Source: Thermoplasmatota archaeon
GTDB taxonomy: Archaea; Thermoplasmatota; Penumbrarchaeia; Penumbrarchaeales; Penumbrarchaeaceae
DNA length: 64,000 nucleotides
Direction of reading: 5' to 3'
NCBI GenBank assembly: GCA_029762535.1
Contig: JARVGK010000003.1
Coordinates: 32,001-96,000 of the forward strand
The notes under the pieces are model-generated. The model was not told the DNA's origin and did no database searches. It worked only from the letters and a program-made list of their open reading frames with translations. Shown here piece after piece: positions 37,201 to 57,657 of the stretch (the stretch's first letter is position 1; each line of letters opens with the position of its first letter). The position numbers were made by a program, and so were the translations under genes.

Positions 37201-37862
37201 CGAGCCTGCCTGAAGGATCGATGTTCGCATCTCCTATAGTGGTTTCCTTGAGCAATTCCAAAGGATATCCCATCAACGTTTGGATAGGATACAGGATCAA
37301 GGATACGACACTCGCCCCGACCGAGCTTGTGAACGAGACCCTCGCGGCCCTTGAATCGAACCGTCAGGTCACTCTCGATCTTTCCGAGGTGCCCGTTGGC
37401 GTTTACGAGATCAGGGTCATCGTAAGGGACGCCACGGAGGGTTCCGTCCTCAATGAATACCCATTGTACCTCACTATAGAGGAGAGGACCCCGGACACGA
37501 CCAGATCATGGATCATCATAGTCGTGGTGGTCCTTCTCCTGATCGTCATAATAGGCGTTGGGGCCTTCCTCTATCTTCAGTCCCGAAAGGGAAAGGAGGA
37601 AATGGCCGTCCGCGAGGAGTTCGAATGTCCAGAGTGCCACAACACCGTTGGCGCGGATGATACGGTGTGCCCCAACTGCGGTGCCGAGTTCGAGGAGGAG
37701 GCCTACAAGTGCCCGAAGTGCGGCAACATGCTGGACCCCGAGGACGATGAGTGCTCCGAATGTGGTTACGATTTCGCCGATGAGGACAAGATGGAGATCG
37801 ACGAGGACGATTATGAGATCGATGAGGGCGAGGTCGAAGAGCTCATCGACATGGAGGAGTGA
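34278..37862 (+). CDS. Large surface protein: Big_5/SbsA Ig-like and carboxypeptidase-regulatory-like domains, TM, cytoplasmic double Zn ribbon, acidic tail
   Basis: PADG/LEYDTxY repeats, TM, CPEC..CPNC..CPKC..CSEC. Confidence 0.8.
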   Translation: MNIKIVSAAMVLLMIATSGIVLFGAQEAEGVPPTRAIPRTFTGFIDNYTLANRGDFVANITAETVDPSVQPPLQIGPFFGMFNETHPALEFRISVDIQSVPAGSPWTIRINDRYGWNETGGGSISVTPYPEFYWQNGSAKTVYVLENGSSDQPAYLPGVFGNLSFTILNGSSGEPLEGVAFDFDKHKGHSTSTSGNYTDLSGNVTFRNMQLGIDQDNNVKVTFIKEHFNTVDQTGYSFFELREGVDTHHFFTLIEDPLVRSVAPADGTMNVRTEKDIVNIFVRFTDLINVSTINQNTIWLENGSGAKVPVSYTFNNDTLPSTWAYLQPIEDLEYDTDHKLVVDTGVKTTVGTSSLWRRYESSFRTWKAPGILRGTVLVEGTSNPAPEGTRIWLDGVLPRDLVDGEFVFDPVSEGVHTLKTVGPTVGGIDEYLYTGMETDPITVVRGDDIDVQDLTVTKRPTVSVIITVTDRSGIPLEGATVTHVITDAQSISDPNGRAVLSDIRASYTQQFWVRAENYQDSIVPLDVGDSDPAQFTVALSESPLPLTITARNGVEVTLDEGAVVAVNSYFVLTFEDLMNPDTMTTANIKVFDSTNDPLSLRIVNDTNNMKRWYITPVSNMMWGSDYRLWISSLVADSLGDNPLWRDVEIAFKTHPLNPASVSGRVAINDKGLEGFDVVLKNGEDTLGSAVTGPNGAFFLYIPMSVETLTGVDALVNGSEYGLLEGRRTGLTLNADEALDDVVINMVRRPNWFRVTYQVDDTGRMLRNGNITISFDRELDHTSEGFQNNFTLGSMRISVTPSADGTGVVIIPEEPLEYDTEYALTISVFSDVDYHKELRFADGKPALIRGDTVTLRTELRPLTVTLQSPSGDLLNAVAKDERFVVRFSTAVVSEVVEEEISMVRFVDDRPVGNIAFEWRDDFRALDITHENFMPETRYVIRLGSGSYGQNGAKLMEDFEVFFRSDSWTDPALRPLPSLPEGSMFASPIVVSLSNSKGYPINVWIGYRIKDTTLAPTELVNETLAALESNRQVTLDLSEVPVGVYEIRVIVRDATEGSVLNEYPLYLTIEERTPDTTRSWIIIVVVVLLLIVIIGVGAFLYLQSRKGKEEMAVREEFECPECHNTVGADDTVCPNCGAEFEEEAYKCPKCGNMLDPEDDECSECGYDFADEDKMEIDEDDYEIDEGEVEELIDMEE

Positions 37863-37932
37863 TCCCGCCCTAATCGAGCCAAGGACCCGAATGTGAAGTA
37901 TATCGGATACACGTATTAAGAGGTGGTTCAGG

Positions 37933-40900
37933 ATGCAGTCGAAGAACATCGTTACGATGTTACTGGTGATCTTGTTGATAGCCATGGCACAGCCCGCGAC
38001 CGGTGATCGGTCGGAGGGCGATCCAACGCGCGGAACGCTGGACGCCTATGTCGCCGGGACGGTCCTCAATGCAACGGGGGGCCATCCCGTCAGCGTCTCC
38101 TCAAGGGAGCTGAGCAGCAACATGTTCATATACTTCAACGGAACGACCGATAACCTGGGAAGGTTCAATATCACCGTGGACTCGGACCCGGTGGACCTCT
38201 TGCCCTACACCGTGTCGATCGCTGAGGTCTATTTTCAGGTCCCATCATTGGGGACGTACAACTTCGACACCACGATCGGATCGGGCCAGACGCAGCATGT
38301 GCCAGAGGGTATGCTTGAGCTTGTGGATGCCGCCCTGGGGGACCTGAAGATCACCATACTCAACGGTTCCTCGATGCGGCCGCTGCCGCACCCCCTTCTC
38401 AACATAAGGGCGGATTCGGTCCCGGATCCTCCATTCCCGACCGCTAAGATGGGTGACGCACAGGGTACGGCCGTTTACCTGGGGATCAGGGCGGTCACGA
38501 CGAAGGTGATTGCAAGCAAATCGAACTTCCTCACCTTGGAGGATTCCACTTCCGACGATATCGTTGAAGTGCTTCCCGGGGTTCAGACCGATGTGACCTT
38601 CGTGCTCGATGAGAGGCCATGGCCTTTCACAACGGACCCTGCGGACGGTTCCGAGGACGTTAACCATACCCAGCGCATGACCGTTTACTACGGACAGGAG
38701 ATGGACCCTCTGACCATCGCCGACGCTTCCAACTTCATGGTCTACCCTGCCGAAGGAGGGGATGCCCTCGAGCTGCAGGTGGAATCCGCGGGAGGCAACA
38801 CCCAGACCAGGATCACAACGATCGCTCCCATGGAATACAACACCTCATGCATTCTACGGATAGACAACACCGTGAGGACCAAGCTGGGTGCGAAGCCTCT
38901 CTGGAGGGCGATGGAGGTCAGTTTCACAACGGAGCTCGCGCCGGCCGTGGTCAGCGGGAGGTTAGTGGACTCATCGAGCGGATCCCCTGTCCCTGGGGTA
39001 TCACTTCGGTTGAAGGATATGCGGGCCAGATCGAATGGGTCCGGCCATTTCATCTTCCCTCTGGTCGTTCCTGAAGTTTACACCCTTGAGGTGGAACCAA
39101 GCTACCTGTTCCTCGGGACAAGCATCACTTCACTAGATATAGTGAAAGGGGAGATCAGGGACCTCGGGGATGTGGAGATCGATCCAAGGCCGAACGGGTC
39201 CCTCGAGGTCCAGGTCCTATCAGGCCCCTTCCCGCTGCCGGGAGCCTGGGTCCATATCGAAGGGTCCGATCTCAACCTGACGACCTCTGACGACGGCATA
39301 GCCTACTTCGAGAGGACCAGAACGGGACTTGTGACCTTGATGGTCGGGGCGGAGCATCATGCGATGGTCGTCGAACAGGCCACCGTGTCGGAAGGGCTAC
39401 GCTCACATCTATCAGTGGCCCTGGTCGAGGATCAAATGCTCGTAAGCGTCGTACCGACCTTGCCCCTCGGCGGTGGCATCGTTGAACCGGGGACGAAGTT
39501 CGTCCTGATAATGCCTGAACCTATAGATTTCTCCACCCTTTCCGTTTCCCTGTGGGAGACCGACAATGAACTGAACAGGGTTCTTCAGATGCCCACACTC
39601 CCGGTCAGCGCAGGGGAGGCTATCAATACATACATGGTGTCCCCCACCTCCGCCCTCCCGATGGAGAGGAGCTATGTCCTCCTGATCGATATGGGTCTTG
39701 CGTCCTCCGGTTCGGGGGATCCTCTTCTGTGGAGGGACCTATCATATTATTTCAGCACGCCTGATTACCCTCTATCCTACGTTTCCGGTAAAATACTGCT
39801 CGACGACAGCCCCTTTGCAGGGCTCGAGGTGAACTTCGGAACCTTCGTTTCTCAGACCGGGGACGACGGGGAATTCAACATCACGGTCGACCTCTCCGGT
39901 CCCACGCTGGATGGGATACTATCCTTCAACGGCTCCGCATGGGGATACGAGAGCCTGAGCCAGTCCATCAGTATTACCCCTGGGGTCGTCGTTGATGCCG
40001 GGACGATCCATCTGGCGATGCTGCCCGGAAGATGCACGATCGATCCGGAGGATGGGTCTAATAATGTAGAACCGGACATTGCCGTATCCTTCACCTTCTC
40101 CGAACCTGTCATCGTACCGGAGGAGGGACTCTCTGCAAGGCTCTTTCTGTCCAGGAATGGATCTACTACCCCCATTCCGGGGTCATATGAGGCTTCGAAC
40201 GGGAACAGGACCATAACGTTCTCCCCAACGTTCCAATTGGAAGAAAGTATGGTTTACGTCGCGACCGTACGGAACGCGCTCATGCTTGGGACGGGATACC
40301 CGGCCTGTCCTGTGGGACACACCTCCCGTTTCACTGTCAGGATGCCGATGGTGCGCATCTCGCTCCTGTCCCCGGATACGTCCATCCTCGAAGAATTGCC
40401 CCTCGACGAACCCATTGTCCTGTCCTTCTCGATGCCGGTGAACCGGACAATGGTAGAGTCATCGTTGGTGATCGATCCGGACCCGCTACTGTTACGATAC
40501 CTATGGAGGACATCCACGGAACTGGAGATCGTCCTCTTCATGACCCCTCTGTCGGAATACACCCTTACCCTGCCCAGATCTGACTTGGGTATGGATGGTC
40601 AGATGGGCATGGAGGAACTTTCGATACAGTTCACGGCGGGAAGATCCTATGCTCGCAGCCACGAGGAGAGGTCCTTCTCGATACTCCCGGACACCATACC
40701 GGAGGTCAAGCCGGGTCAGGAGATTCGCTTGAACGGCCTGATCGACGGCTCTAAGGGATATGATGTCGTCGTGAAGCTGACCGGGAACGGAATGGAACAG
40801 GAACACGTCGCACAGGTGGGAGAGGACGGGTCCTGGGACATAGCCTTCAAGGCTCCGAATGCGTCAGGCACCTACACGATCTCTCTGACCATAGGGGTGC

Positions 40901-41133
40901 CAGGGGCACCATCATGTATAGAACCCAGGTCCTATACTATAGAGGTCGGATCAGAGAAGGAGGTGGATGAGCCCTACGACATCCAGGGTTTGATGGTACC
41001 GGTCCTGGTCGGTTTATTCATACTGATCATCGTTCTTGTGGCGATCGCCGTGTTCTTTGTTCAAAGGAAGAGAGCCAGAGAGACCCTCGAGAACATAGAT
41101 TACGACTCCGTCGATATCGACATGGAGGAATGA
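37933..41133 (+). CDS. Paralogous Ig-like (Big_5) surface protein with C-terminal TM
   Basis: PADGSEDV, PLWRxxxxxFxT repeats, terminal TM, ends DIDMEE. Confidence 0.8.
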   Translation: MQSKNIVTMLLVILLIAMAQPATGDRSEGDPTRGTLDAYVAGTVLNATGGHPVSVSSRELSSNMFIYFNGTTDNLGRFNITVDSDPVDLLPYTVSIAEVYFQVPSLGTYNFDTTIGSGQTQHVPEGMLELVDAALGDLKITILNGSSMRPLPHPLLNIRADSVPDPPFPTAKMGDAQGTAVYLGIRAVTTKVIASKSNFLTLEDSTSDDIVEVLPGVQTDVTFVLDERPWPFTTDPADGSEDVNHTQRMTVYYGQEMDPLTIADASNFMVYPAEGGDALELQVESAGGNTQTRITTIAPMEYNTSCILRIDNTVRTKLGAKPLWRAMEVSFTTELAPAVVSGRLVDSSSGSPVPGVSLRLKDMRARSNGSGHFIFPLVVPEVYTLEVEPSYLFLGTSITSLDIVKGEIRDLGDVEIDPRPNGSLEVQVLSGPFPLPGAWVHIEGSDLNLTTSDDGIAYFERTRTGLVTLMVGAEHHAMVVEQATVSEGLRSHLSVALVEDQMLVSVVPTLPLGGGIVEPGTKFVLIMPEPIDFSTLSVSLWETDNELNRVLQMPTLPVSAGEAINTYMVSPTSALPMERSYVLLIDMGLASSGSGDPLLWRDLSYYFSTPDYPLSYVSGKILLDDSPFAGLEVNFGTFVSQTGDDGEFNITVDLSGPTLDGILSFNGSAWGYESLSQSISITPGVVVDAGTIHLAMLPGRCTIDPEDGSNNVEPDIAVSFTFSEPVIVPEEGLSARLFLSRNGSTTPIPGSYEASNGNRTITFSPTFQLEESMVYVATVRNALMLGTGYPACPVGHTSRFTVRMPMVRISLLSPDTSILEELPLDEPIVLSFSMPVNRTMVESSLVIDPDPLLLRYLWRTSTELEIVLFMTPLSEYTLTLPRSDLGMDGQMGMEELSIQFTAGRSYARSHEERSFSILPDTIPEVKPGQEIRLNGLIDGSKGYDVVVKLTGNGMEQEHVAQVGEDGSWDIAFKAPNASGTYTISLTIGVPGAPSCIEPRSYTIEVGSEKEVDEPYDIQGLMVPVLVGLFILIIVLVAIAVFFVQRKRARETLENIDYDSVDIDMEE

Positions 41134-44403: not shown

Positions 44404-47400
44404 TCATTTTCTCTTTACTCTCTTCCTGGTCCTGACAGTGGCCCTTTCCGATCCATCGTCATCTGGGGGTGTTTCTGCGGACATGTCCTCTTCAGAGGTC
44501 TCGACCTCGGGGCCTACCTCATCGTCCTCAAGGACCTCATCCTCGAGATCTTCCTCATCTTCATATCCCTCCTCCTCTGCTCCCTCCTCTTCGTCCTCGG
44601 GCTCCCCTTCGTCCTCCAGGTATTCCTCATCTTCCAGGTCCTCATCGGCTTCCTCATCCGCGTCCCCGTAAGCCTCCTCATCGAGATAGTCATAGCTGTA
44701 AGGATCGAACTCCTCCTCATCGGTTCCGAGATCGTCGTCCCTGGGCTGTTTGATGTATATGTATACGCCGATGGCGATGATGATGATCGCGAAGATTGCA
44801 AGGGCCGCGTACATCACCTCCCTCGGTATCCCATCGGATCCTACGATGGTCCTCTCGGTCCGGAAGGTCCATGTATTGTTGGTGTAGCCCTGAGGGAAAC
44901 CGGCCCCTTCTATGGACCTGGCCTCGGTCCCGATCCTCACGGTGTATGATACGCGGTTGCCGAGCCCGTCGTGCAGGATCTCGAGGCTCTGATTGTTATT
45001 GGTCCATACGTATCTCGCACCTTTGAGGGGGGGGTCGATCGTAGTGTATGATTCGATGGTAAGGGTGTCCATGGGCTGGTTGAACATGATCCTTATGGAG
45101 GTATCGAGGTCCCTGACCGTACCTACCGGGGTCCTCCAGAGCACCAGGAGCTCCCTGGGCGGCGGAGTGAAATCCAGATAGTCCAGCCTGATCTCGAACC
45201 TGCCCCAGTATGGTTCCTGGGAACTTACCTCGAACGTATTGGTCATCTTCTGCAGATATCCCGCTCTCTTCCCGGGGATCGCCGAGACGGATTCCGGAGG
45301 GGTGACCTTGAACCTGCCAATGAAGGGGAGCGTCCTGATGCTGAACGTCGCCTCTCCCAGGTTGTTCGTGGTCCTGTTCTCGAGGACGACATCATCCATC
45401 GAAAGCAGTTCTATCAATGCGTTGAAGACCGCCCCGCTCCTCGGACCCTCTCCGAATGCGACGAAAACATCTATCGAACCGGTCTCCGGTCTGAGATAAT
45501 ATGTCAGAAAGAGTTCAGTGAAAAGATCGGGGTTCGGACCTGATGCGGATATGAACGTGCTGGTGTTCGAGAGATAGCCTGAGCGAACGCCGATCTCTCC
45601 TCTCAACGCGGCCTCCGGAGCTCCTTCCAACCTGTATTCCCCTCCCATCTCAAGGGAGGAGAATCCAACAACTCCGTCCTCCTGGGCTTGGGCGCTCTCG
45701 ATCAGAGTGCCGTTGAAGGACAGGAGACGTACTATGGAGCCCTGCGCCCCCTGGCCTGAGAGCGGCCCTCCCTCGTAAAGGACCGTCACTTCAAGTGAAT
45801 AGAGCATGCGTTCGGTCGTTCCCTGGAATACGGGAGTGTAAGGGGAATAGTTGTATGATGTATCGAAGGCCAGCATCCTGAAGCCATAAAGCGTCCCGGG
45901 GACAAGACCTCCTAGGGTGTACGACGTTTCTCCGGGACCGAGCGTCACAAGCGTTTCGAACTGCGTCATGGAGGGGGTAGAATTCATCTCGATGATGAAA
46001 CCTTCAAGATCGGTCTCGGAGCCGGGGTCCCAGGATATGGTGAGATGATCGACGCCCTTGTCGGAGATGATCGCGGAGGTTGGCGTGGCGGGCGGGGTCA
46101 GGTCCGACGTGATGTTGGTCGCTGGCTGGGAAGGAGCCCCTTCCCAAACTCCGTCAAAGGCTGACACTCTGAATATTCCCCGCGTGGAAGGGCCTATCTC
46201 AGGGGATATCCAGGATGTTGATGGATGGTCGACCTCCCCCGAGAGTATCCATTCTCCCGAGGAGAATGAGTATATCCTGTAGGCGATCGTGTCGTCGTCG
46301 TTGGGGTCCCATTTTAGCTTTATGCTCTCGAGCGTATCCAATGAGTCCGCCGTCAGGTTCAGGACGGATTGTGGAAGGTCTATGTCAGGTACAACAAGTT
46401 CGACCGACATCGGAGCCGATGTGTCGATATCGTAGACATGATCCCATATCATCGCCGTTCCCGGAACGTGAACGGTCGCGTTGGTCCTAACGTTCATAGG
46501 CGCGTTGGATCCGGGATAGATCATTTTCAAGGCCACGAATGGTGCTATTCCGCCATCCGGTCCCGTGACCGGGTCGCTCCCCCCGAAGTAAGGGGTCGAG
46601 TGGAGGCCGCCTGTCCTTTCGTTCACTACGTGGAGCTCCACTCCTTCCATGGGCTGCACGTCCTTGTACAGGACGCGAACTCCGATCGTGTTGCTTATCA
46701 TTACGTTCGACATGGGGTCGACATCGAACGAGGACACGGTAGTGTCCAGGACCTCGACCTCAGCTCCTTCGTATGCGGATAGGGCCGTCCCGCTGGCGAC
46801 TATATCCGATCCCACAACGGCATGGTCCCCCTCCCTGAATATCACGCTCCTTTGTGCGTCCACCTTGCTGTTGTTCATGAGCAGTCGGGCGCTATTCGAT
46901 TCCAGGCCGATGCCGGCGCTCTTGACGATGACGTGGTCCAGGACGATATCGTTTCCGGAGAGGTCGAGGGCGGCCATGGTGGTATTGGACCAGATGATGA
47001 CGTCCTTCATCATCATGCTGGTCGTATCGTGCCCCGTTACTATCGAATGGCCTGTGCCCGGATCGGAATGGATCATGGTGGTCAGGATGCGTAGATTGGT
47101 AGTATGCGGAGGCACTGGGCCTGCCCTTATCCCTGTCGATCCCTCTCCGATGAGGTCGATGGAACAGCCATCGATCACCCCTCTCCTTACGTCCCCGAGA
47201 ACGTCTATCCCCGTACCGGGGCCGTTCAGATATATCTGGGAGTATACCACCTCGTTATTACTTCCGCCCAGATGGAGTAGCCAACCGTCGTTGAACGATG
47301 TGAGGGTGGAGTCGATAAGGACGTTGTCCGTTCCCGAGAGGATCGATCCGCTCGAAGCTTCGCCCCAGACTATGAAGGTCGAATCTCGGATCTCCGTCTG

Positions 47401-48735
47401 GTCCGCTCCAACCCGGACCCCGAAGGAGTTGTCCGCCCTTATGGAATAGCTGTTCGAAGAAAGGAGCGCCCCCCTGCCCGGACCGAGAACGATGCCGTTG
47501 GTCATCATACCGCTGGTCATGATGATGTCATTGATCAGGGTGAGGTTCCTGTGGTCGGAGAAGGCCGCTATGATCGATCCATTCCCCCCTTGGTAGAAGT
47601 TCGATCCCGATATGGACATATCAACGCATCCCAGTAGGAACGACCCGTTCACAAGGCCCCCGGAGAGGGATATGCCCGTTTGATTATCCCCCTTCGAGGA
47701 ATAGGACAGGTCCATGATCGAGCATCCTATGAGATGGGTGCCATTGAGGAAGGACGAACCGTTCCCGAGCATGTTCACAGATGTATTGCTCAGCATGACA
47801 TCCCTCACGTTGAACACCTCGATACCTCTGGCTCCCGAGTCCAGGAAAAGGGCCGTCCCGTTCATTGTGACGTTATCACACGATGAAAGTTCGATGCCGT
47901 GTGTGTTCTTACCGGTCATGGTGAGGAAGCAGCCCTCTATCTCTATCCCGGAACCGGAGAGGTGCATCGCCGTTCCGACCATCTCGATGATCATGGCATT
48001 GAGCTCGAGGTCTGTACCCTGGAAGTGGATCCCAGATGCTCTCCCGGTCGATGTGATGCTGGAGTTATGGAAGTGGATGGAATCTCCCGAGATGATGAAC
48101 CCCTTTGAACCGGACCCGAGTCCTATGTCCATGTCCCTGAAGGTGATGTTCGAGACATTGATGGCATGGCATATCGTGGATCCCGATCCGTCACTTGCCA
48201 TTTTCCCCAATATGATGTTCGATGAATTGGCTATGTTCACGCAGATGTCCGGCGATCCCGAGAAGGATGCTCCGTCGATCTCGATGGACTTCGACGACTC
48301 TATGTTCAGAGCGATGCCGGTCGTTGACCTGAAGCCGATCCCCGTCAGATCGATGTCGTTCGAGGAGATGTTGAGAGACCGACCGACGAAGGTCATGCCG
48401 GCCAATGTTACGAAGGGAGCGGTCACACTGCTGTTCTTGCCATACGGGCCTGAGATAAGTACCGATGCCGTATCATTACCCCTGAGCGTTACGGAACGGG
48501 TCCCGACACTGATCGATTCGTTGTAATTGCCGGATGCGATGACTATTACATCGCCCTCGACGGCATCGCCCAGGGCTGCCCCTATGGTGGAATAGGTGGA
48601 TCCCGTCCCGACGTAAAGTACGAGTCCGGATGCCCCGCGTGGGGTTATCAGCAGGATCCCCGATGTGAATAACAATAATACCATGGCCGTTGCGATGAGC
48701 TTACCTTTGCGTTCCCCGGCGTGTACTTCGATCAT
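44404..48735 (-). CDS. Large surface protein: beta-helix, FN3 domains, Big_5, TM, acidic cytoplasmic tail
   Basis: YSTIGAAL..GDVIVIASGNY beta-helix start; LTISWDP..LVPGTLYGFR FN3; IMFNQPMD. Confidence 0.8.
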   Translation of the reverse strand: MIEVHAGERKGKLIATAMVLLLFTSGILLITPRGASGLVLYVGTGSTYSTIGAALGDAVEGDVIVIASGNYNESISVGTRSVTLRGNDTASVLISGPYGKNSSVTAPFVTLAGMTFVGRSLNISSNDIDLTGIGFRSTTGIALNIESSKSIEIDGASFSGSPDICVNIANSSNIILGKMASDGSGSTICHAINVSNITFRDMDIGLGSGSKGFIISGDSIHFHNSSITSTGRASGIHFQGTDLELNAMIIEMVGTAMHLSGSGIEIEGCFLTMTGKNTHGIELSSCDNVTMNGTALFLDSGARGIEVFNVRDVMLSNTSVNMLGNGSSFLNGTHLIGCSIMDLSYSSKGDNQTGISLSGGLVNGSFLLGCVDMSISGSNFYQGGNGSIIAAFSDHRNLTLINDIIMTSGMMTNGIVLGPGRGALLSSNSYSIRADNSFGVRVGADQTEIRDSTFIVWGEASSGSILSGTDNVLIDSTLTSFNDGWLLHLGGSNNEVVYSQIYLNGPGTGIDVLGDVRRGVIDGCSIDLIGEGSTGIRAGPVPPHTTNLRILTTMIHSDPGTGHSIVTGHDTTSMMMKDVIIWSNTTMAALDLSGNDIVLDHVIVKSAGIGLESNSARLLMNNSKVDAQRSVIFREGDHAVVGSDIVASGTALSAYEGAEVEVLDTTVSSFDVDPMSNVMISNTIGVRVLYKDVQPMEGVELHVVNERTGGLHSTPYFGGSDPVTGPDGGIAPFVALKMIYPGSNAPMNVRTNATVHVPGTAMIWDHVYDIDTSAPMSVELVVPDIDLPQSVLNLTADSLDTLESIKLKWDPNDDDTIAYRIYSFSSGEWILSGEVDHPSTSWISPEIGPSTRGIFRVSAFDGVWEGAPSQPATNITSDLTPPATPTSAIISDKGVDHLTISWDPGSETDLEGFIIEMNSTPSMTQFETLVTLGPGETSYTLGGLVPGTLYGFRMLAFDTSYNYSPYTPVFQGTTERMLYSLEVTVLYEGGPLSGQGAQGSIVRLLSFNGTLIESAQAQEDGVVGFSSLEMGGEYRLEGAPEAALRGEIGVRSGYLSNTSTFISASGPNPDLFTELFLTYYLRPETGSIDVFVAFGEGPRSGAVFNALIELLSMDDVVLENRTTNNLGEATFSIRTLPFIGRFKVTPPESVSAIPGKRAGYLQKMTNTFEVSSQEPYWGRFEIRLDYLDFTPPPRELLVLWRTPVGTVRDLDTSIRIMFNQPMDTLTIESYTTIDPPLKGARYVWTNNNQSLEILHDGLGNRVSYTVRIGTEARSIEGAGFPQGYTNNTWTFRTERTIVGSDGIPREVMYAALAIFAIIIIAIGVYIYIKQPRDDDLGTDEEEFDPYSYDYLDEEAYGDADEEADEDLEDEEYLEDEGEPEDEEEGAEEEGYEDEEDLEDEVLEDDEVGPEVETSEEDMSAETPPDDDGSERATVRTRKRVKRK

Positions 48736-48843: not shown

Positions 48844-50076
48844 ATGCATCCGACGGATGAGTTGAGGGGCGCAGCATCGACCCTCCTCGAAGGTAGAACG
48901 ATCGTCCTTGGCGTAACTGGGTCCATCGCTGCGGTCGAGTGCGTCAAACTCGCCAGGATGCTAATCCGTCACGGCGCTGCAGTTCATGCTGTCATGACGG
49001 CGGAGGCCAGGAAGATAGTGGGGGAGTACGCCCTCGGCTTCGCAACGGCGAACCAAGTCATCACCGAGCTGACCGGAGACCTCGAGCATGTGGCTATGTG
49101 CGGGGACGTTGAAGGGCGGGCGGACCTTCTCCTGATCGCCCCCTGCACCGCCAACACCCTCGGGAAGATCGTCAACGCTATCGACGATACCCCCGTCACG
49201 ACGTTCGCCACCACGGCGATAGGGACAGGGATCCCGTTGATCGTCGTTCCCGCCATGCACAATACCATGTACGCCCACGAGGGTGTGGCCTCCAACATCA
49301 AGAAGGCCAGGTCCATGGGCATAGAGGTTGTGGACCCGGTGCTCTCCGAGAAGAAGGCCAAAATGGCCCCGGTGGACACCATAGTCGAGATCGCGATAAG
49401 AAAGCTCTCCGGAGGGGGCCTTCAAGGTCGAAAGGTTTTGATCGTCGCCGGGGCCAACCGGGAGGAGGTGGACGATATGAGGCTCCTTACCAACAGGGCG
49501 ACTGGAAGGACCGGGATCCATCTGGCCATGGAGGCTTTCAGAAGAGGGGCGGACGTGACCCTCCTTGCCGGAGTATCGGTCCACGGGATCCCGCCTCACT
49601 TCAGGACGGTTCGCTTCGGAGGGGTCATGGACCTCTGGGAGAAAGTGGAGGAGGAATTGTCTTCCTGCGACCAGTTCGATATCGCCCTCTTCCCGGCGGG
49701 GATCTCAGACTACATACCTTCCAGGTTAGATGGGAAGGTCCCCTCGGGACGGGAGGAGATGACTCTCGAGCTCAAACCCGCCATAAGGATCATGGATCGC
49801 TTCGTGAAGAGGGGCGGTAGCCGCCTTATCGTGGGTTTCAAGGCCGAGAGCGTATCGGGTGAGGAGCTCCTGAGAAGGGCCTACAGGAGGCTTAAGGAGG
49901 TCGGGATGGACCTGATCGTGGCGAACGACCTTTCTCAGGTGAAGGAGGATTCCAATCACGTTATGATAATATCGAACGACAGGGAGGTCCTCGACATCGA
50001 GGGATCGAAGGCTGACATCGCTTCCGTGCTCATGGCGAGATGCCAGGAGATGCTCGTCGGGATAAAGGAGAGTTGA
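48844..50076 (+). CDS. coaBC: Bifunctional phosphopantothenoylcysteine decarboxylase/ligase
   Basis: GVTGSIAA, APCTANT, PAMH, TNRATGRTG, VGFKAE, IVANDL. Confidence 0.95.
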   Translation: MHPTDELRGAASTLLEGRTIVLGVTGSIAAVECVKLARMLIRHGAAVHAVMTAEARKIVGEYALGFATANQVITELTGDLEHVAMCGDVEGRADLLLIAPCTANTLGKIVNAIDDTPVTTFATTAIGTGIPLIVVPAMHNTMYAHEGVASNIKKARSMGIEVVDPVLSEKKAKMAPVDTIVEIAIRKLSGGGLQGRKVLIVAGANREEVDDMRLLTNRATGRTGIHLAMEAFRRGADVTLLAGVSVHGIPPHFRTVRFGGVMDLWEKVEEELSSCDQFDIALFPAGISDYIPSRLDGKVPSGREEMTLELKPAIRIMDRFVKRGGSRLIVGFKAESVSGEELLRRAYRRLKEVGMDLIVANDLSQVKEDSNHVMIISNDREVLDIEGSKADIASVLMARCQEMLVGIKES

Positions 50077-50079
50077 ACC

Positions 50080-51273
50080 ATGGTACTGCGAGGTGGAGCT
50101 TTCTGCCCCGGGCATATCACCGGGCTTTTTTCCATACACGACGATACCGAGATGTACCTCCACAAAGGCTCCAGGGGGTCCGGGGTCTCCGTTACCCTCG
50201 GGGCCTCCGTTTCCACTGCACTGTATCCCCCTGAAGATGGGAACGGGACGGAGAACCTTTCACTGGAGCTTCATGTAAGGGGAGTTGACAAGTTCCCCGT
50301 GAACGATCCGATATACCGCCAGGTCCTGAAGGAGATGCTTCCCAATTCAGGTATCGGATGGAGGGCGGCTGTAAGGTCGAACCTGCAGCTGCCCGTAGGT
50401 CAGGGGTTCGGAATGTCGGGAGCCGGCGCCCTAGCCACCGCAATTTCCGTCTGGGAGGCCCTCCATTCGACCATTCCGCGCTGGGACCGAAAATTGAGGT
50501 TCAAGGGACAGCAGGAGATGTTCTTCTCGATGAAAACGTCGGAGTTCAGCGTCAGGCCGATAAGGAGGAGGATGCGCTCACACCTGCAGCTTCTGTCAAT
50601 GAAGGAGGAACCCTCGCTGCCTGTCCAGCCTTTCGGCAAACCCTCAGGAATGGTGGAGGAGGGAGGGGTCAGGCCCCCCATGAGGTGGCTCAAGGACAGC
50701 GAGGCCGAAAAAGGGTCCGGTGGGATCACGTACGCCGATTGCGTGAACGCGGCGCACAGGGTCGATGTCATGATCGGCGGAGGTCTGGGCGATGTGATCT
50801 CACAGGCCAGGGGCGGCGTGGAGATCAGGATGTCTCCCGGCGTCCCGCCCTACGGGGAGATCCACACCATCCCCGTGGAGCTGGACAACACCCCGAAAGT
50901 GATCGCCGCCACGGTGGGGCCCCCGATAGAAACTTCGAGGGTGATAGGGAATCCCGCAAGAAGAGAAAGGATACACGGGGCGGGCGAGGCGGCGTTGAGG
51001 AGGCTGACAGAAGCGCCATCGATGACCATGATGATGTCAGAGAGCAGGCAGTTCTCCATCGAGGCCGGGATCCAGAGCATGATGGTGAGGTCCGCCCTCT
51101 CCGAAGTCGATGCGATGGTGAAGGCCTCGCAGATAATGATCGGCAACAGCGTGTTCACCATGGTACCGAGCAAGGATAAGGACCTCGTCAAAAGTATCAC
51201 GGAGATCTGGGGAAGGAGAGGAAGCGTATTCTCCATGGACGTGGACCTGATCGGTGCGAGGCCCTTGACCTGA
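50080..51273 (+). CDS. pok: Pantoate kinase (GHMP family) with about 80-aa insertion
   Basis: FCPGHITGLF, LPVGQGFGMSGAGAL, GLGDV..Q..GG.EIR..PG; adjacent to coaBC. Confidence 0.88.
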   Translation: MVLRGGAFCPGHITGLFSIHDDTEMYLHKGSRGSGVSVTLGASVSTALYPPEDGNGTENLSLELHVRGVDKFPVNDPIYRQVLKEMLPNSGIGWRAAVRSNLQLPVGQGFGMSGAGALATAISVWEALHSTIPRWDRKLRFKGQQEMFFSMKTSEFSVRPIRRRMRSHLQLLSMKEEPSLPVQPFGKPSGMVEEGGVRPPMRWLKDSEAEKGSGGITYADCVNAAHRVDVMIGGGLGDVISQARGGVEIRMSPGVPPYGEIHTIPVELDNTPKVIAATVGPPIETSRVIGNPARRERIHGAGEAALRRLTEAPSMTMMMSESRQFSIEAGIQSMMVRSALSEVDAMVKASQIMIGNSVFTMVPSKDKDLVKSITEIWGRRGSVFSMDVDLIGARPLT

Positions 51274-51575: not shown

Positions 51576-52646
51576 GTGTTGATCATGTTGGAGGACCAGC
51601 TTTCCACATCCAGGTTCGAGAGCGTTGGGGTCAATGTCCCCTCCAGGTCACTCACGACCACCGACCTTATGAGGTCCATGAAGCACAGGATCGGGCTAGA
51701 CCTCGAGAGGCTTACGGGCATCCATGCTAGGAGGGTCTGCGCCCCAGGAGAGTCATCATACACATTGGCCCTGAATTCCGCCAGGGACTGCCTCAGCCAT
51801 TCGAGATACAAGCCGGATGACCTGGAGGTTATAATAAACTGCTCCATATCCCGTTCAAAGGACCGGAACATGATAGTCTATGAACCATCCATGGCCCATT
51901 ACATCCGTCAGGCGATCGGGGCCAAGAACGCAATGGTGTTCGATATCAACAATGCATGCGCTGGAATGCTAACGGGCGTTCAGATACTAAACGGTTATAT
52001 CAGGAACGGAATATTCAAGAACGGCATGGTCGTCAGCGGAGAGCATATAACGCCGATCAGCGACAGCGCGACAAGGACGGTCAGGTCGATAGCGAGCAGA
52101 CAGCTCGCCTCCCTTACCGTTGGAGACGCGGGAGCCGCGGTAATACTCGAAAAAACGGGGGATCGGGGCAACGGGATGTCGGTCACCCAGTTCACCACCC
52201 TCTCGAAGTTCAGCAGGCTCTGCATAGGAAAGCCGCTCACCAACGATATCGGCGGAATGATGGTGGCAAAAGCAAGGAAGATCCACAGGGTGGCCCTGGA
52301 CCACGCCCCTCAACTGATCAAGGGGGCCCTCATCAAGGCGGGACTGACCATAGACAGGATAGATCATCTCATCCCGCACCAGACCTCGAAAAGCTCAATA
52401 AAGAAAGGCATAAAGGAGATGGCCGACCATTTCAAAGCGACTCCCAAGAACGTCGTCATCAATCTGATGGAGTATGGGAATACGGCCTCGACGACAGTGT
52501 TCCTTGCCCTTCATGACATGCTCAAGGGCGGCATCGTGAAGAAAGGCGAGAAGATCATGCTATTGTGCTTCGCATCGGGCCTGGTCGTTGGGGTTATCAT
52601 CTTTACAATGGACGATCTGGTGGATCGATATGGGATCTCGAATTAG
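51576..52646 (+). CDS. oleA: OleA-like acyl-CoA condensing enzyme (KAS III/thiolase fold)
   Basis: GIHARR, SISR, EPS, NAC, LASLTVG, HQ and GN motifs; next to oleBCD-like genes. Confidence 0.7.
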   Translation: MLIMLEDQLSTSRFESVGVNVPSRSLTTTDLMRSMKHRIGLDLERLTGIHARRVCAPGESSYTLALNSARDCLSHSRYKPDDLEVIINCSISRSKDRNMIVYEPSMAHYIRQAIGAKNAMVFDINNACAGMLTGVQILNGYIRNGIFKNGMVVSGEHITPISDSATRTVRSIASRQLASLTVGDAGAAVILEKTGDRGNGMSVTQFTTLSKFSRLCIGKPLTNDIGGMMVAKARKIHRVALDHAPQLIKGALIKAGLTIDRIDHLIPHQTSKSSIKKGIKEMADHFKATPKNVVINLMEYGNTASTTVFLALHDMLKGGIVKKGEKIMLLCFASGLVVGVIIFTMDDLVDRYGISN

Positions 52647-53526
52647 GTCAGCCGCATTCGTTGGGAAGAGCCTCAACCCTTTCTCCAGAGGCGCCATATC
52701 ACTGGGTGTCAAGGCTGCGAGGAAATGCATCCATAACTCGGGTATAGACCCGTCAGACATAGGACTGCTCATCTTCTGCGGAATATACCGGGACGAGAAC
52801 ATCGGGGAGCCGGCCATCGCCTCGCTCATACAGTCCAATCTTGATATCAACCTCCTGAGCGAGGGTGAGAAGGGGACGTTCGCGTTCGACATACTGAACA
52901 GCGGTTGTGGGATGGTGACCGCGCTCCATGTGGCCGACAGCCACCTCCGATCGGGTGGAGGTGAATATGCGATGATAGTGGCCTCCGATCACATACCCAT
53001 CCCGAGCCATACCGAGGGTTACCCTTTCCAACCCGGGGGAGGCGCACTTCTGCTCGAACGCTCCGACGAGGACAGGGGCCTTACCGATTTCAGGTTCGAT
53101 ACATATCCGACCGACAAGGAGGCCTTCCACTCGTTCATCGAATACAGGGACGGAAAGGAGAAGGGTAAAAAGAAGGGGCAGTTCCTCAGGTTCGAGGAGG
53201 ACCCACATTTCCTGGAAAAGGGCGTATCGGGTGCGCTTATGACGGTTAATAAACTCCTTGAGAGGAATTCACTGAGCATCGATGACGTACGGTCGATCCT
53301 GCCATCCCAGAGCCCGACAGGCTTCCCCATTGCCCTTGGAAAAGGGTTGGGCCAAGAGAAGAGGACCATTGACCTTACAAGCATCCATGGGAACCTCCAC
53401 ACGGCGGGATTGGCGGCCTGTCTCGAGAGCGCCATGGAGAGCGATAAGCTTCCTGCGAACTCGAACCTCCTTCTCGTAAATGTTGGATCGGGAATATCGG
53501 TGGGCGCGGCCCTTCTCCGAACATGA
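52630..53526 (+). CDS. Second KAS III/OleA-like protein with degenerate catalytic residues
   Basis: GEPAIA retained; NAC becomes NSGC and HQ becomes SQ; GNLHTAG. Confidence 0.75.
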   Translation: MGSRIRSAAFVGKSLNPFSRGAISLGVKAARKCIHNSGIDPSDIGLLIFCGIYRDENIGEPAIASLIQSNLDINLLSEGEKGTFAFDILNSGCGMVTALHVADSHLRSGGGEYAMIVASDHIPIPSHTEGYPFQPGGGALLLERSDEDRGLTDFRFDTYPTDKEAFHSFIEYRDGKEKGKKKGQFLRFEEDPHFLEKGVSGALMTVNKLLERNSLSIDDVRSILPSQSPTGFPIALGKGLGQEKRTIDLTSIHGNLHTAGLAACLESAMESDKLPANSNLLLVNVGSGISVGAALLRT

Positions 53527-53557
53527 ACCATAGACCGGCCGGGACCTGTTATATCCG

Positions 53558-54553
53558 TCAGATCGGATGCCCCTTCAGATATTCTCCATACCTCTTCATA
53601 CCCTCCGCCGTGGAAATCCTAGGTCCGTAGCCAAGGTCCCTTTTGGCCGAGGAGATATCGAACCAGTGTGAACTGGTCATCTCCTCCACAAGGAACCTGG
53701 TGACAATGGGCTCTCCTCTCCTTCGAAGGAGGAAGTGGGTCAATTCCATGATCCCCGCTAAAGCCATGGCCGTCCATTTGGGAATGGACCCCCTGATAGG
53801 AGGGGCCCCTGCAAGGGCCAGGAAGTCATCGATGGCATCCCAGGCATTCACTGGCTCACCGTTGGTGATGAAATATGCTCTGCCCCTGCATCGTGGGTTC
53901 TCCTTGAGCGCTTTGAGGGCCAGGATATGGGCCTCGGCGGCGTTTTCAATATAAACCATGTCCACAACGTTCTTTCCGCCCCCTAACCTCTTCAACCTTC
54001 CGGCCCTTGCCCCCTGGACGAGCCGAGGGAGCAATCGGTCGTCCCCCGGACCCCAGATGAGATGCGGACGCAGTGCAATGGTCCGAATATCATCGCCGTT
54101 CGCTGAGAGGACCATACGCTCGGACGCCGCCTTGGTCCGGTTGTAATGCGACCCATGCACTGCGGGATACGGTGCGCTCTCATCGGCGCCCTCCATGTCC
54201 TTCCCATCAAAGACAACGGAAGGGGAGCTTGTGAAGACGAGGTAACCCACTCCGTTACTCCTGCATGCTTCGATCACGTTCCGGGTCCCCTCAACGTTCG
54301 TCCTGTGGAATTCGTGATAAGGCCCCCAGAAACCCACCCTGGCAGCAGTATGTATGACCGCATCCATGCCCCCGACGGCATCCACCACCGTTCGCTGGTC
54401 CCCTATGTCCCCTGATATCGTCATGATGCCGCTCTTCCCAAGTTCAGGATAGCTGCCTCTGGAGAAGCTCGTGACATCATGGCCCTGATCCCGGAGCATG
54501 TGACATATGGCTCCTCCCAGGAACCCGCCTCCGCCGGTGACGAGGACCCTCAT
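53558..54553 (-). CDS. oleD: OleD-like 2-alkyl-3-oxoalkanoate reductase (extended SDR)
   Basis: TGGGGFLG, TSSPSVVF, YNRTK, RPHLIWGPGD, WFDIS.A.RDLGY. Confidence 0.85.
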   Translation of the reverse strand: MRVLVTGGGGFLGGAICHMLRDQGHDVTSFSRGSYPELGKSGIMTISGDIGDQRTVVDAVGGMDAVIHTAARVGFWGPYHEFHRTNVEGTRNVIEACRSNGVGYLVFTSSPSVVFDGKDMEGADESAPYPAVHGSHYNRTKAASERMVLSANGDDIRTIALRPHLIWGPGDDRLLPRLVQGARAGRLKRLGGGKNVVDMVYIENAAEAHILALKALKENPRCRGRAYFITNGEPVNAWDAIDDFLALAGAPPIRGSIPKWTAMALAGIMELTHFLLRRRGEPIVTRFLVEEMTSSHWFDISSAKRDLGYGPRISTAEGMKRYGEYLKGHPI

Positions 54554-56175
54554 CAGAATTGCCTCCCGGCCCATTCCGCAAGCTCTTCCCTGAGTATCTT
54601 GGCATTGTGGCGAACGTCCATCGGGAATCCGTCATGGATCAGGATATCTCTAATATCCTCGGTCAGAATATTGGCCTTTCCCAAAGCCAGGAGCTCCTTT
54701 TTGATCCTGTCCGGATCGCCGATATTTTGGTCCTTCTTAAGCTCGACAACGATCACAGGCCTCTGGTTTCCTATTTGACCCACACCGACTAGTGCCGACC
54801 TGAAGACCAAGGGGTGTTTGTTGAAGATCGCCTCACATCTGACGGGATATAGCGTTCCTTTCTTTGTCACGACCCTGTGCGCCTTCCTCCCGCAGAACCA
54901 GAGCATTCCGTCCTCCAGATAGCCCGTGTCCCCCATTCTGTGCCATATGGTCTTGCCATCCAGTATCTTGGCGTTTTTGGTATGCTCAGGCTTCCTGAAG
55001 TATTCCTTGGTCACCGAGGGCCCCCTCACGCATATCTCACCGACTTCCCCATCCGGTAGGACCTCAGCGGACCCCCAATCCGCGACAGGTCCGTCCGTGA
55101 TCCGAATGATCCGAACCTCGTTGCCAGGTAGCGGCCTACCCACGCATGTTCCTGCTCCGGTCTCGGTCCTGCGGAGGGAGTGCTCCAGTATCACATCGCT
55201 GGAGATATCAGTTACTGGCAGTGCCTCGGTCGCCCCGTAAGGAGTATGGATAAGAGCATTTTTTGGCAGTATTCGGTGAAGATCGACCATGAGGTCGGGA
55301 CGTATTGGAGCTCCCGCGGTCACGATCCTTCTCACCGATCCCAGGGTCAACTTCCTCTCTATCCCGTAACGGGCCAGGTTCGTCAAGAGCGCCGGGGAAC
55401 CATAGACATTGGTGCATTTCTGGTCCTCAATGGCCCTGACTATGTTCTTAGGATCGGCCTTTCCGGGCTTGGTAGCATCCATGTAAGGGATGACCGAGGT
55501 CAGCCCCAGGTTGGCGTCGAATAGGGCGAAGAGCGGGAACGTCGCCAGGTCAACATCTCTCTTTTCGTATCCGAAATGGTCCTTTAGGAATCCGATCTGA
55601 TGGTCGAACATGGAATGTTCGTAGACCACTCCCTTCGGGGGGCCTGTGGAACCGCTGGTGAAGAAAATACCGACGGTATCCTCAGGCCTTCTCTTGACCG
55701 AAGGGAAAGGAGCGGGATCGGAGGATCGAACCTCTTTAAGCCTCTTACCGCCCCATGCACCTGTGGTTATCTTCAGTTCGACGGTCCTGAAAGCGGACGG
55801 TGAGAGTATCCTGAGTACATGGGCAAGGGGCGTCCCGATGAACGCCTTGGCCTCGACCTCCCCGAGGGAGGAGACGAGCCTCTTCTTGCCCATACCAGGG
55901 TCTATCATAACAAGGACAGCCCCCATTTTTAAAAGGGCGGAAGTGAGGGAAAAGAACTCTATCGAGGGTTTGACCATCAGGATGGCCTTGTCGTCCTTCT
56001 TGAGCCCCGCATCGATCAACCCCCTGGCGTATCTGTTCGATTCCTCCTCTAGCCTGCGGTAGGTCATGCTCCTATATCGAGGAGACGGATCGACCTGGAC
56101 CACCACAGCCGCCTTATCAGGTTGTGTCCTTGCTAACTCCGTCAACCTCTCCGAGAGGTTCGTCGTCGAATCCAT
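54553..56175 (-). CDS. oleC: OleC-like beta-lactone synthetase (AMP-binding)
   Basis: IDPGMG, FTSGSTGPPKG, DLATFPLFAL, TPYGATEALP, WHRMGD, GRKAHRV, DVRHNAKI. Confidence 0.88.
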   Translation of the reverse strand: MDSTTNLSERLTELARTQPDKAAVVVQVDPSPRYRSMTYRRLEEESNRYARGLIDAGLKKDDKAILMVKPSIEFFSLTSALLKMGAVLVMIDPGMGKKRLVSSLGEVEAKAFIGTPLAHVLRILSPSAFRTVELKITTGAWGGKRLKEVRSSDPAPFPSVKRRPEDTVGIFFTSGSTGPPKGVVYEHSMFDHQIGFLKDHFGYEKRDVDLATFPLFALFDANLGLTSVIPYMDATKPGKADPKNIVRAIEDQKCTNVYGSPALLTNLARYGIERKLTLGSVRRIVTAGAPIRPDLMVDLHRILPKNALIHTPYGATEALPVTDISSDVILEHSLRRTETGAGTCVGRPLPGNEVRIIRITDGPVADWGSAEVLPDGEVGEICVRGPSVTKEYFRKPEHTKNAKILDGKTIWHRMGDTGYLEDGMLWFCGRKAHRVVTKKGTLYPVRCEAIFNKHPLVFRSALVGVGQIGNQRPVIVVELKKDQNIGDPDRIKKELLALGKANILTEDIRDILIHDGFPMDVRHNAKILREELAEWAGRQF

Positions 56176-56179
56176 CAGC

Positions 56180-57082
56180 CTACCCCCTGCGCAGGGCTTT
56201 CCCCACCTCTTTCAGGATGCGGTCCCTGGCATCCTCTATGACATAATGTCCAGCATCCTGATATGTCACGAATCGGGCCTTCGGGAATCGAGCCCTCCAG
56301 ACGTCTAATATATCCATATCGAATATGAAATCCTTTTCACCCCAAATAACGAGCATCGGCTTCCCCTTTAGCTTTGACAGGTTCTCGTCGATCCACTTGA
56401 GCGTGCCGTAGCTTGGGTCCTTTGGTACGAGGGGTATGTCCTGAACGAACCTGAGCGTGGATAGGCGGTTCCTCCACGAGTTGTACGGGGCGACGTAACC
56501 CTTCCTTACATGGGGGTCCATCCTCTTTTCAACGCCGATATGGGACGCTATTCTGGAAAAAGCGTTGAGACCCCTGATGAGAAGGGTCGGTGAGATCAGG
56601 CCGTACTTCACGTAATAGAGAGACAGGGGCAATCTCTTGCCCTCCGGCATCCTGAAGGCCGCGGTGTTCATGAACACGAACCTCGAGAACCGCTCCGGAT
56701 GTCCGACCGCGACCCCTGCTCCGATCACACCCCCCCAATCATGGGCTATCAGAGTGATATCCTCATCGATGCCCAGGTGATCGAGGAGCGCTTCCACATC
56801 CTGGATCCTGGATGCGATCCTGTATTGGTATTTGTCCTCTCCTGGTCGGTCCGACAGCCCCATTCCCATATGATCGGGCACGATGCATCGGTGGTCCGCC
56901 CTGAGGTCCTTGACCAGCTCCCGGAAATAAAAAGACCAGGTCGGGTTGCCGTGAAGAAAAAGAACGGGAGGTCCCCTGCCCTCGTCGAGATAATGATGCC
57001 TCAGACCGTTCCTCTCGAACCAGTGATGTTCGAACGGGTAAATGTCCCTGAAAGGGGTAATATCGAAAGGTGTTCCATGCAT
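56180..57082 (-). CDS. oleB: OleB-like beta-lactone decarboxylase (haloalkane dehalogenase fold)
   Basis: HGNPTWSF, HDWGG, FVQDIP, WGEKDFIF, AGHYVIED; precedes oleC. Confidence 0.85.
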   Translation of the reverse strand: MHGTPFDITPFRDIYPFEHHWFERNGLRHHYLDEGRGPPVLFLHGNPTWSFYFRELVKDLRADHRCIVPDHMGMGLSDRPGEDKYQYRIASRIQDVEALLDHLGIDEDITLIAHDWGGVIGAGVAVGHPERFSRFVFMNTAAFRMPEGKRLPLSLYYVKYGLISPTLLIRGLNAFSRIASHIGVEKRMDPHVRKGYVAPYNSWRNRLSTLRFVQDIPLVPKDPSYGTLKWIDENLSKLKGKPMLVIWGEKDFIFDMDILDVWRARFPKARFVTYQDAGHYVIEDARDRILKEVGKALRRG

Positions 57083-57248: not shown

Positions 57249-57335
57249 TGGTGCAGGGGAAGGGATTCGAACCCTCGAACCACTAAGGACCAGACCCTGA
57301 ATCTGGCGCCGTTGGCCAGGCTTGGCTACCCCTGC
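57249..57335 (-). tRNA. tRNA-Leu(CAG)
   Basis: GCAGGGG/CCCCTGC acceptor, CCAGA-TTCAGGG-TCTGG anticodon arm, long variable arm, encoded CCA. Confidence 0.95.
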
Positions 57336-57657
57336 ATGTTTTTGCGTTTGTGCCTGGGTAGCGTATGGCCAACGGCGCCCCGAGACGCAGTCTCGGTGAT
57401 GGCGCCTCGGATGGGTGGCATGTGCCACCCGTCCCCTTCCGCGAACGCTTTGGTGGTGAGACCAAAGGGTTCTTGGGCAGGCTTGGCTACCCCTGCATGT
57501 TTTTGCGTTTGTGCCTGGGTAGCGTATGGCCAACGGCGCCCCGAGACGCAGTCTCGGTGATGGCGCCTCGGATGGGTGGCATGTGCCACCCGTCCCCTTC
57601 CGCGAACGCTTTGGTGGTGAGACCAAAGGGTTCTTGGCCAGGCTTGGCTACCCCTGC
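57336..57657. repeat. Two near-identical 161-bp tRNA-Leu-derived tandem units
   Basis: 57336-57496 and 57497-57657 differ at one position by eye; each ends in tRNA nt 1-24 (ttgg(c/g)caggcttggctacccctgc). Confidence 0.92.

Follow-up and report, generated by a model that had tools for sequence, protein, structure and literature searches.

A putative route to long-chain olefins in Thermoplasmatota archaea: an LstAB-type condensing pair encoded together with OleB, OleC and OleD

The stretch of DNA considered here (the window, 64,000 nucleotides of contig JARVGK010000003.1 from the Thermoplasmatota archaeon assembly GCA_029762535.1) carries two convergent blocks of genes related to those of head-to-head hydrocarbon and beta-lactone formation, namely oleB, oleC and oleD on one strand and two genes of the beta-ketoacyl synthase III (KAS III) type, named kasA and kasB, on the other (table 1). 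The open reading frames (ORFs) of all five genes are open, intact and delimited as in the initial annotation of the locus. A gap of 4 nucleotides separates oleB from oleC, oleC and oleD have one base in common within the sequence TGATG, kasA and kasB overlap by 17 nucleotides, and 31 nucleotides lie between the convergent kasB and oleD. The tight coupling of oleB, oleC and oleD, their convergence on two KAS III-like genes and the position of the whole between coaBC with a pantoate-kinase-like gene (pok) and tRNA-Leu, all pointed out in that annotation, were confirmed in the sequence. Each of the five genes is present as a single copy in the genome (2.96 Mb, 93% complete, 1% contamination); the window lies on a contig of 137 kb.

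Table 1. Genes of the locus and their immediate neighbours, in positions of the window.
Feature	Assignment	Position	Strand	Remarks
kasA	putative LstA/NltA-type catalytic KAS III subunit	51576..52646	+	356 aa from GTG; 353 aa from ATG at 51585
kasB	putative LstB/NltB-type KAS III subunit	52630..53526	+	298 aa
oleD	predicted 2-alkyl-3-oxoacid reductase	53558..54553	-	331 aa; from homology and motifs
oleC	predicted beta-lactone synthetase	54553..56175	-	540 aa; from homology and trees
oleB	candidate HLD-III-like beta-lactone decarboxylase	56180..57082	-	300 aa; from residues and tree
coaBC and pantoate-kinase-like gene		48844..51273	+	neighbours only, outside the system
tRNA-Leu(CAG)		57249..57335	-	neighbour only

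All five are genuine, intact genes of an archaeon, and they are not the product of a chimera, since an independent assembly from the European Nucleotide Archive (L155) repeats the identical layout (89% nucleotide identity over 9.3 kb), the window contains an archaeal A-type ATPase operon, and the GC content at third codon positions (GC3) of the five genes, 0.67-0.72, is that of the host, the neighbours ranging from 0.66 to 0.77. The taxonomy of the contig, which had been singled out for checking, is archaeal: the host belongs to Ca. Penumbrarchaeia (class EX4484-6, Thermoplasmatota), its family being one of uncultured sediment archaea, and its same-family relatives are metagenome-assembled genomes of Thermoplasmatota. 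That the cluster is due to contamination by bacteria, to chimerism or to a recently gained, non-functional island at tRNA-Leu is thus largely refuted and hardly credible: the nearest non-archaeal homologues are indeed bacterial proteins, 52-57% identical, and next to the cluster lies a tRNA at which there is a local duplication, but the same layout recurs in the independent assembly, the proteins form an archaeal clade across several genera (support for OleC 100/100), and archaeal markers and host-like GC3 characterize the contig. The acquisition at the tRNA border that had been suggested at first was not borne out, as orthologues at 55-80% identity occur at other loci in five genera of the family, with largely agreeing gene trees; recent transfer at tRNA-Leu is ruled out by these family-wide orthologues, by their other loci and by GC3. 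Likewise, the proposed link with CoA biosynthesis had to be abandoned, and any functional relation to coaBC-pok is ruled out, because the adjacency is not conserved: the two genes flank the cluster only here and in the near-identical strain (L155), not in a relative with an OleC 79% identical. Nor is tRNA-Leu a conserved neighbour: upstream of oleB in same-family relatives either proS or a large hypothetical ORF is found.

Sequences from syntenic clusters (L160-L163, L168) served as Ole and Lst references, in place of those of Xanthomonas, Shewanella, Streptomyces toxytricini and Hodarchaeales. OleB is recognized in a family scan as a haloalkane-dehalogenase-like hydrolase, keeps invariant the HLD-III pentad Asn, Asp, Trp, Asp, His (PMC10503415) as N46, D115, W116, D251 and H279, shares 53% identity with the OleB from a pfa-oleABCD cluster and falls inside the OleB clade; it is probably a cis beta-lactone decarboxylase. 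OleC, 56% identical to its counterpart in the pfa-oleABCD cluster, matches PRK09274 with 656 bits (cut-off 478) and NF045786 with an E value of 1e-169. Its scores on NF045786 and NF045785 (565 and 523 bits) are below the cut-offs of 900 and 850, which are lineage-specific, narrowly fitted to Xanthomonas and Shewanella, because the textbook OleC of the pfa-oleABCD cluster also fails them (679 and 617). For OleD (52% identical to that of the pfa-oleABCD cluster) the best match is NF042422, with an E value of 2e-119 and 399 bits against a cut-off of 580 that the control OleD, with 436, does not reach either; the GGGGFLG Rossmann motif, S109 and Y137xxxK are all in place. OleC and OleD are only 35-39% identical to proteins of lipstatin-like clusters, and the trees place OleB, OleC and OleD within the canonical Ole proteins and away from the Lst/Nlt-like ones. 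An apparent split of oleC in the genome G004 (L022:9985-10017) is an assembly gap of Ns.

The designation oleABCD-like, under which the locus was first described, thus stands for oleB, oleC and oleD, but not for oleA, and the phylogenies divide in the same way, KasA being placed outside OleA. On the OleA model PRK09258 (NF006720; cut-off 285) KasA scores 144.5 and KasB 62.6, against 469 for a control OleA (from L163). The published OleA pattern EPxx[AS]x(14,18)DxxNACL (PMC7158056) is matched by both canonical controls and by 0 of 89 A-type proteins: KasA reads NACA, and Ala follows the Cys in most A-type proteins. KasA is 38-39% identical to the A genes of lipstatin-like clusters (39% over the full length in one case) and 26-31% identical to canonical OleA over about 155 aa. 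In its tree it groups with the A genes of lipstatin- and nocardiolactone-like clusters, these syntenic clusters standing in for true LstA and NltA sequences, and a very long branch separates canonical OleA. That the two genes are OleA paralogues is ruled out by model, pattern and tree.

The active-site residues are distributed between the two subunits in the manner of known heterodimers. KasA carries Glu103, Cys128, His268 and Asn302, the Cys-His-Asn triad being retained in 48 of 49 A-type rows of the alignment. KasB has Gly in the Cys column and Ser in that of the His, retains the Asn, and contains an invariant Glu60-Pro aligned with the Glu-Pro of OleA; this Glu is found in all 83 B-type homologues, none of which has Cys or His at the respective columns. 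In the lipstatin system the corresponding residues are C128, H271 and N305 of LstA plus E60 of LstB (PMC12141560), and E57 is that of NltB in NltAB (10.1101/856955). Judged from these features, KasA and KasB are an LstAB/NltAB-type pair of one A-like and one B-like subunit. The predicted KasA-KasB complex scored 0.95, the best control 0.00, with a partner pLDDT of 91, runs agreeing in at least 95% of contacts and KasB residues 56-66 in the interface; the score mark that was used is met by 58 of 80 solved pairs and 2 of 110 mismatched pairs. Because KAS III homodimers have already been solved, such a prediction may reflect these known structures and conveys likeness, not binding. Given Glu103 of KasA, which also occurs in the A genes of lipstatin-like clusters, an A homodimer would be compatible with the sequence as well. 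Fusions of A and B are found at L101, L121 and L126, and kasB of the genome G010 (L040:5288-5983) ends early, at 231 aa, possibly by a frameshift.

Family matches, residues and clades support the original proposal that this archaeon encodes a complete gene set for condensation, reduction, lactonization and decarboxylation, and the reading considered likely is that of an inherited pathway to long-chain internal olefins; all chemical steps, as well as the substrate source, product and role, we infer from the sequences. KasA and KasB would form a heterodimer, in which a first acyl thioester would acylate Cys128 of KasA, while Glu60 of KasB, crossing the interface, would serve as base, so that a second acyl chain is joined on by non-decarboxylative Claisen condensation, leading to a 2-alkyl-3-oxoacid. 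The latter would be reduced by OleD with NAD(P)H, the resulting hydroxy acid would be adenylated and closed to a beta-lactone by OleC, and removal of CO2 by OleB would yield a cis internal olefin, probably a neutral membrane lipid. The acyl chains would come from the archaeon's own PfaA-like megasynthase, fed by an adjacent single-chain carboxylase, or from uptake and acyl-CoA ligases.

The main rival to this pathway, which seems unlikely, holds that the end product is a dialkyl beta-lactone, acting as a nocardiolactone-like hydrolase inhibitor or signal, and that the OleB homologue hydrolyses or detoxifies it. Indeed, all characterized AB heterodimers end in beta-lactones, not in olefins (PMC12141560; 10.1101/856955), several bacterial AB-C-D loci are without oleB, and a genome of another family of the class (G032) has kasA-kasB-oleC-oleD beside gyrBA (L021:6970-11797, C25), oleB being found nowhere in this genome, 91% complete. 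The G032 genes probably represent a nocardiolactone-like beta-lactone cluster in an archaeon, with a lactone as the end product; its C and D proteins have diverged and may be of separate origin. In the family under study, as well as in bacteria, oleB is instead tightly coupled to oleC (the two are fused in L106), the pentad of OleB is complete and its place in the tree is with the OleB proteins from pfa-oleABCD clusters, and neither a non-ribosomal peptide synthetase (NRPS) nor a formyltransferase nor an exporter was seen beside the archaeal genes. A catabolic cassette, degrading lactones, esters or branched lipids of sediment organic matter, would suit a class described as heterotrophic (PMC12220078) and a genome with beta-oxidation genes, and is nevertheless very improbable: the condensing triad is complete in KasA and the Glu is there in KasB, the clades into which the five proteins fall are all biosynthetic, and neither a transporter nor a regulator is conserved beside the genes.

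With regard to the substrates of the proposed olefin pathway, the initial annotation had considered only scavenged or isoprenoid-derived acyl-CoAs, a view that proved too narrow, as the genome encodes a PfaA-like synthase and an acetyl-CoA carboxylase. The former is a single-chain megasynthase of 3308 aa on contig C17 (L202:819-10745; TIGR02813, 997 bits vs 1010) with FabK-like, KS, AT, second KS, four acyl carrier protein (ACP), KR, DH and PPTase domains, no FabA domain being among its Pfam matches; directly after it (L202:10833-17261) lies a eukaryote-type single-chain acetyl-CoA carboxylase of 2142 aa. The synthase is carried by 22 of 23 family genomes and by each of the 11 genomes that have oleC; for the phylum the figure is 136 of 401. 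This wide spread in family and phylum indicates that it is native, with roles beyond Ole. The carboxylase is found in 15 of 37 genomes of the class. In Shewanella, the Pfa synthase feeds OleA directly (PMC6463001). Self-made acyl chains are a plausible substrate, at close to an even chance; scavenged and ligase-activated fatty acids, for which long-chain acyl-CoA ligase homologues and beta-oxidation genes are at hand in the genome, may well be the source, at something below an even chance; isoprenoid or other acyl sources are a minor and rather unlikely option, and no gene in support of isoprenoid acyl-CoA substrates lies nearby.

A more extended scheme, in which straight chains made de novo by the ACP-dependent megasynthase and the eukaryote-type carboxylase are passed to the LstAB-type pair and OleBCD, giving long-chain and possibly polyunsaturated olefins in the isoprenoid ether membrane of Ca. 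Penumbrarchaeia family members, is put forward tentatively and, taken as a whole, is less likely than not. Isoprenoid ether lipids are probably still made, because glycerol 1-phosphate (G1P) dehydrogenase and geranylgeranylglyceryl phosphate (GGGP) synthase genes are present in the genome. Besides the lactone end products of the characterized heterodimers, what weighs against an olefin pathway so supplied is that (i) in three of the genera with ole genes no single-chain carboxylase was detected (0 of 11 genomes); (ii) the megasynthase adjoins the ole genes in no locus seen, lying about 18 kb off in G004 and G010, and pfa-ole linkage was found in none of the AB-type loci; (iii) about 125 Thermoplasmatota genomes have the megasynthase but no oleC, and of five bacterial AB-oleBCD genomes tested only two have it; (iv) in its N-terminal FabK-like domain, which resembles an enoyl reductase (E value 1e-11), Arg replaces the His of FabK, and a search for a separate PfaD/FabK found none; and (v) three of its four ACPs have Thr for Ser, which only ACP1 keeps.

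The search of archaeal genomes for oleBCD that was called for at the outset found ole genes in relatives from the family and on the archaeal contig L158. Within the family, 9 of the 23 other genomes have oleC, as has G032 from another family, and a sample of 401 Thermoplasmatota yielded no further case; kasA occurs in 12 of the 23 and in G032, and all 11 genomes with oleC carry it. No canonical OleA was found in 37 genomes of the class. In most relatives kasAB adjoins an aminotransferase gene and is unlinked from oleBCD, whereas the two blocks are joined in three archaeal layouts: (i) convergent, in this genome and in L159; (ii) co-directional kasA-kasB-oleB-oleC-oleD, on L158, where neighbouring genes are about 60% identical to those of this genome; and (iii) A-B-C-D without oleB, in G032. 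In Syntrophales-like bacteria the co-directional arrangement of all five genes is usual; it was found at six Syntrophales-like or unclassified deltaproteobacterial loci (L062, L067, L068, L070, L075, L082) and on contig L165. Since genomes of kin are not independent, it is on this repeated linkage, rather than on counts, that the conclusion that the five genes belong together rests. Among the kasA-kasB-oleB-oleC(-oleD) operons of Syntrophales-like bacteria (L062-L070, L075, L082, L165, L258-L270), several are without an adjacent oleD.

The separation of kasAB from oleBCD in most relatives bears on a further, rather improbable alternative, according to which branched, mycolate-like 2-alkyl-3-hydroxy acids or ketones are made for a bacterial-type ester or ether lipid, with OleC and OleB as ligase and hydrolase. 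In its favour are also the two PlsC-family acyltransferases (L194:1426-2112 and L195:1342-1932) and the megasynthase of the genome, as well as the presence of kasAB without oleC in three incomplete genomes. The latter are, however, only 62-86% complete, three different layouts bring the five genes together, and OleC is a far better match to models of beta-lactone synthetases (565-656 bits) than to those of fatty-acyl-CoA ligases (212 bits).

As to the history of the olefin genes, the family forms a clade in a careful tree of OleC, with the support given above, and in quick trees of OleB (99), KasA (97) and OleD (94), with a similar internal split. A Syntrophales-like group is sister to it for OleB (97), KasA (94, with G032) and OleC (93/89); the bacterial rows were picked by similarity to the query, and such a sister position is no proof of the donor. 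The KasB tree splits the archaeal rows, a single archaeal clade not being rejected (p-AU 0.139), and a single origin of all archaeal OleC proteins, G032 and L164 included, is neither shown nor rejected (p-AU 0.08). The simplest reading would be an old gain from bacteria, because the set is present in 9 of 23 other family genomes with broadly matching gene trees, followed by vertical descent with rearrangement and loss. The L164 sequence (L164:2046-3605, GCA_038874775.1) is an OleC homologue, 55% identical, that falls outside the clade of the family; its contig, labelled Thermoplasmata archaeon, is only 3.6 kb long, so that the gene context is cut off.

The system combines features of several known ones. 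With OleABCD of Xanthomonas campestris, Shewanella oneidensis and Micrococcus luteus it shares the order oleB-oleC-oleD and homologues with catalytic residues, 52-56% identical to pfa-oleABCD cluster proteins, and, with Shewanella, a Pfa-type synthase in the genome; it differs in that the host is archaeal and a two-gene LstAB-type pair replaces the homodimeric OleA. Like LstAB of lipstatin formation in Streptomyces toxytricini and NltABCD of nocardiolactone formation in Nocardia brasiliensis, it has an A gene (Cys-His-Asn) next to a B gene (triad lacking, Glu essential), together with C and D homologues, but OleB is present, NRPS, ACP and formyltransferase genes are absent, and C and D group with Ole. 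The Syntrophales-like operon consists of the same five genes, in the order of L158, while here the kas pair is inverted against oleBCD.

That the pathway is described from bacteria only, as was initially assumed, no longer holds, and 'first in archaea' is not claimable, because a preprint already reports OleABCD in Hodarchaeales (10.1101/2024.07.04.601786); these are likewise head-to-head hydrocarbon genes in archaea, although of an Asgard phylum, annotated with OleA and mentioned in one sentence at the annotation level. None of the enzyme types is new. In a 2020 survey, Archaea were without ole clusters (PMC7158056), and the oleC surveys consulted list bacteria only (PMC10176705, PMC13170169). 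Our literature search, with subscription journals mostly outside its coverage, retrieved neither an LstAB-type pair combined with OleB, nor a Syntrophales operon of this kind, nor Ole genes of Thermoplasmatota, and only a passing mention of polyketide synthases in this phylum. Ca. Penumbrarchaeia (class EX4484-6) have been described as heterotrophs of anoxic habitats, with no mention of olefins (PMC12220078). As the OleA pattern misses every AB-type protein of the present set, AB-type olefin clusters of archaea and Syntrophales-like bacteria would have been invisible to the 2020 survey. In anoxic sediments, long-chain alkenes of non-isoprenoid type are attributed to bacteria or algae, and an archaeal source, if true, would alter the reading of alkene biomarkers and of the proposed cryptic hydrocarbon cycle. 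The enzyme set and the candidate fatty-acid factory are unexpected for cells thought to build lipids from isoprenoids only, and the retention of G1P dehydrogenase and GGGP synthase makes this a testable case of fatty-acyl chemistry beside isoprenoid lipids. Furthermore, AB heterodimers are able to join two different chains, and the five genes are small and directly expressible.

As for the surroundings, a promoter and terminator scan around the cluster gave chance-level results with a bacterial consensus. The assignment of coaBC is supported by TIGR00521 (313 bits, cut-off 220); the pantoate-kinase-like protein (50080-51273), of 397 aa, best matches NF040725 and NF041122, with scores far under the cut-offs, and exceeds these family models of 286-298 positions by about 100 aa. 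Beyond the cluster, 57312-57657 holds two tandem copies of 161 nucleotides (99% identical) and a third copy of 24 nucleotides; each copy begins with the first 24 nucleotides of tRNA-Leu, and an inverted 14-nucleotide piece of it is also contained. The near-identical strain L155 shows a different duplication on the opposite side of tRNA-Leu, so that an assembly artefact is possible. Finally, several large ORFs of 625-1443 aa lie at 21109-25572, 34278-41133 and 44404-48735 of the window; one large ORF, without an NCBIfam match at an E value of 1e-25, sits between the A-type ATPase genes, and that of 1443 aa, which has beta-helix, fn3 and Ig-like domains as well as an acidic tail, resembles a surface protein.

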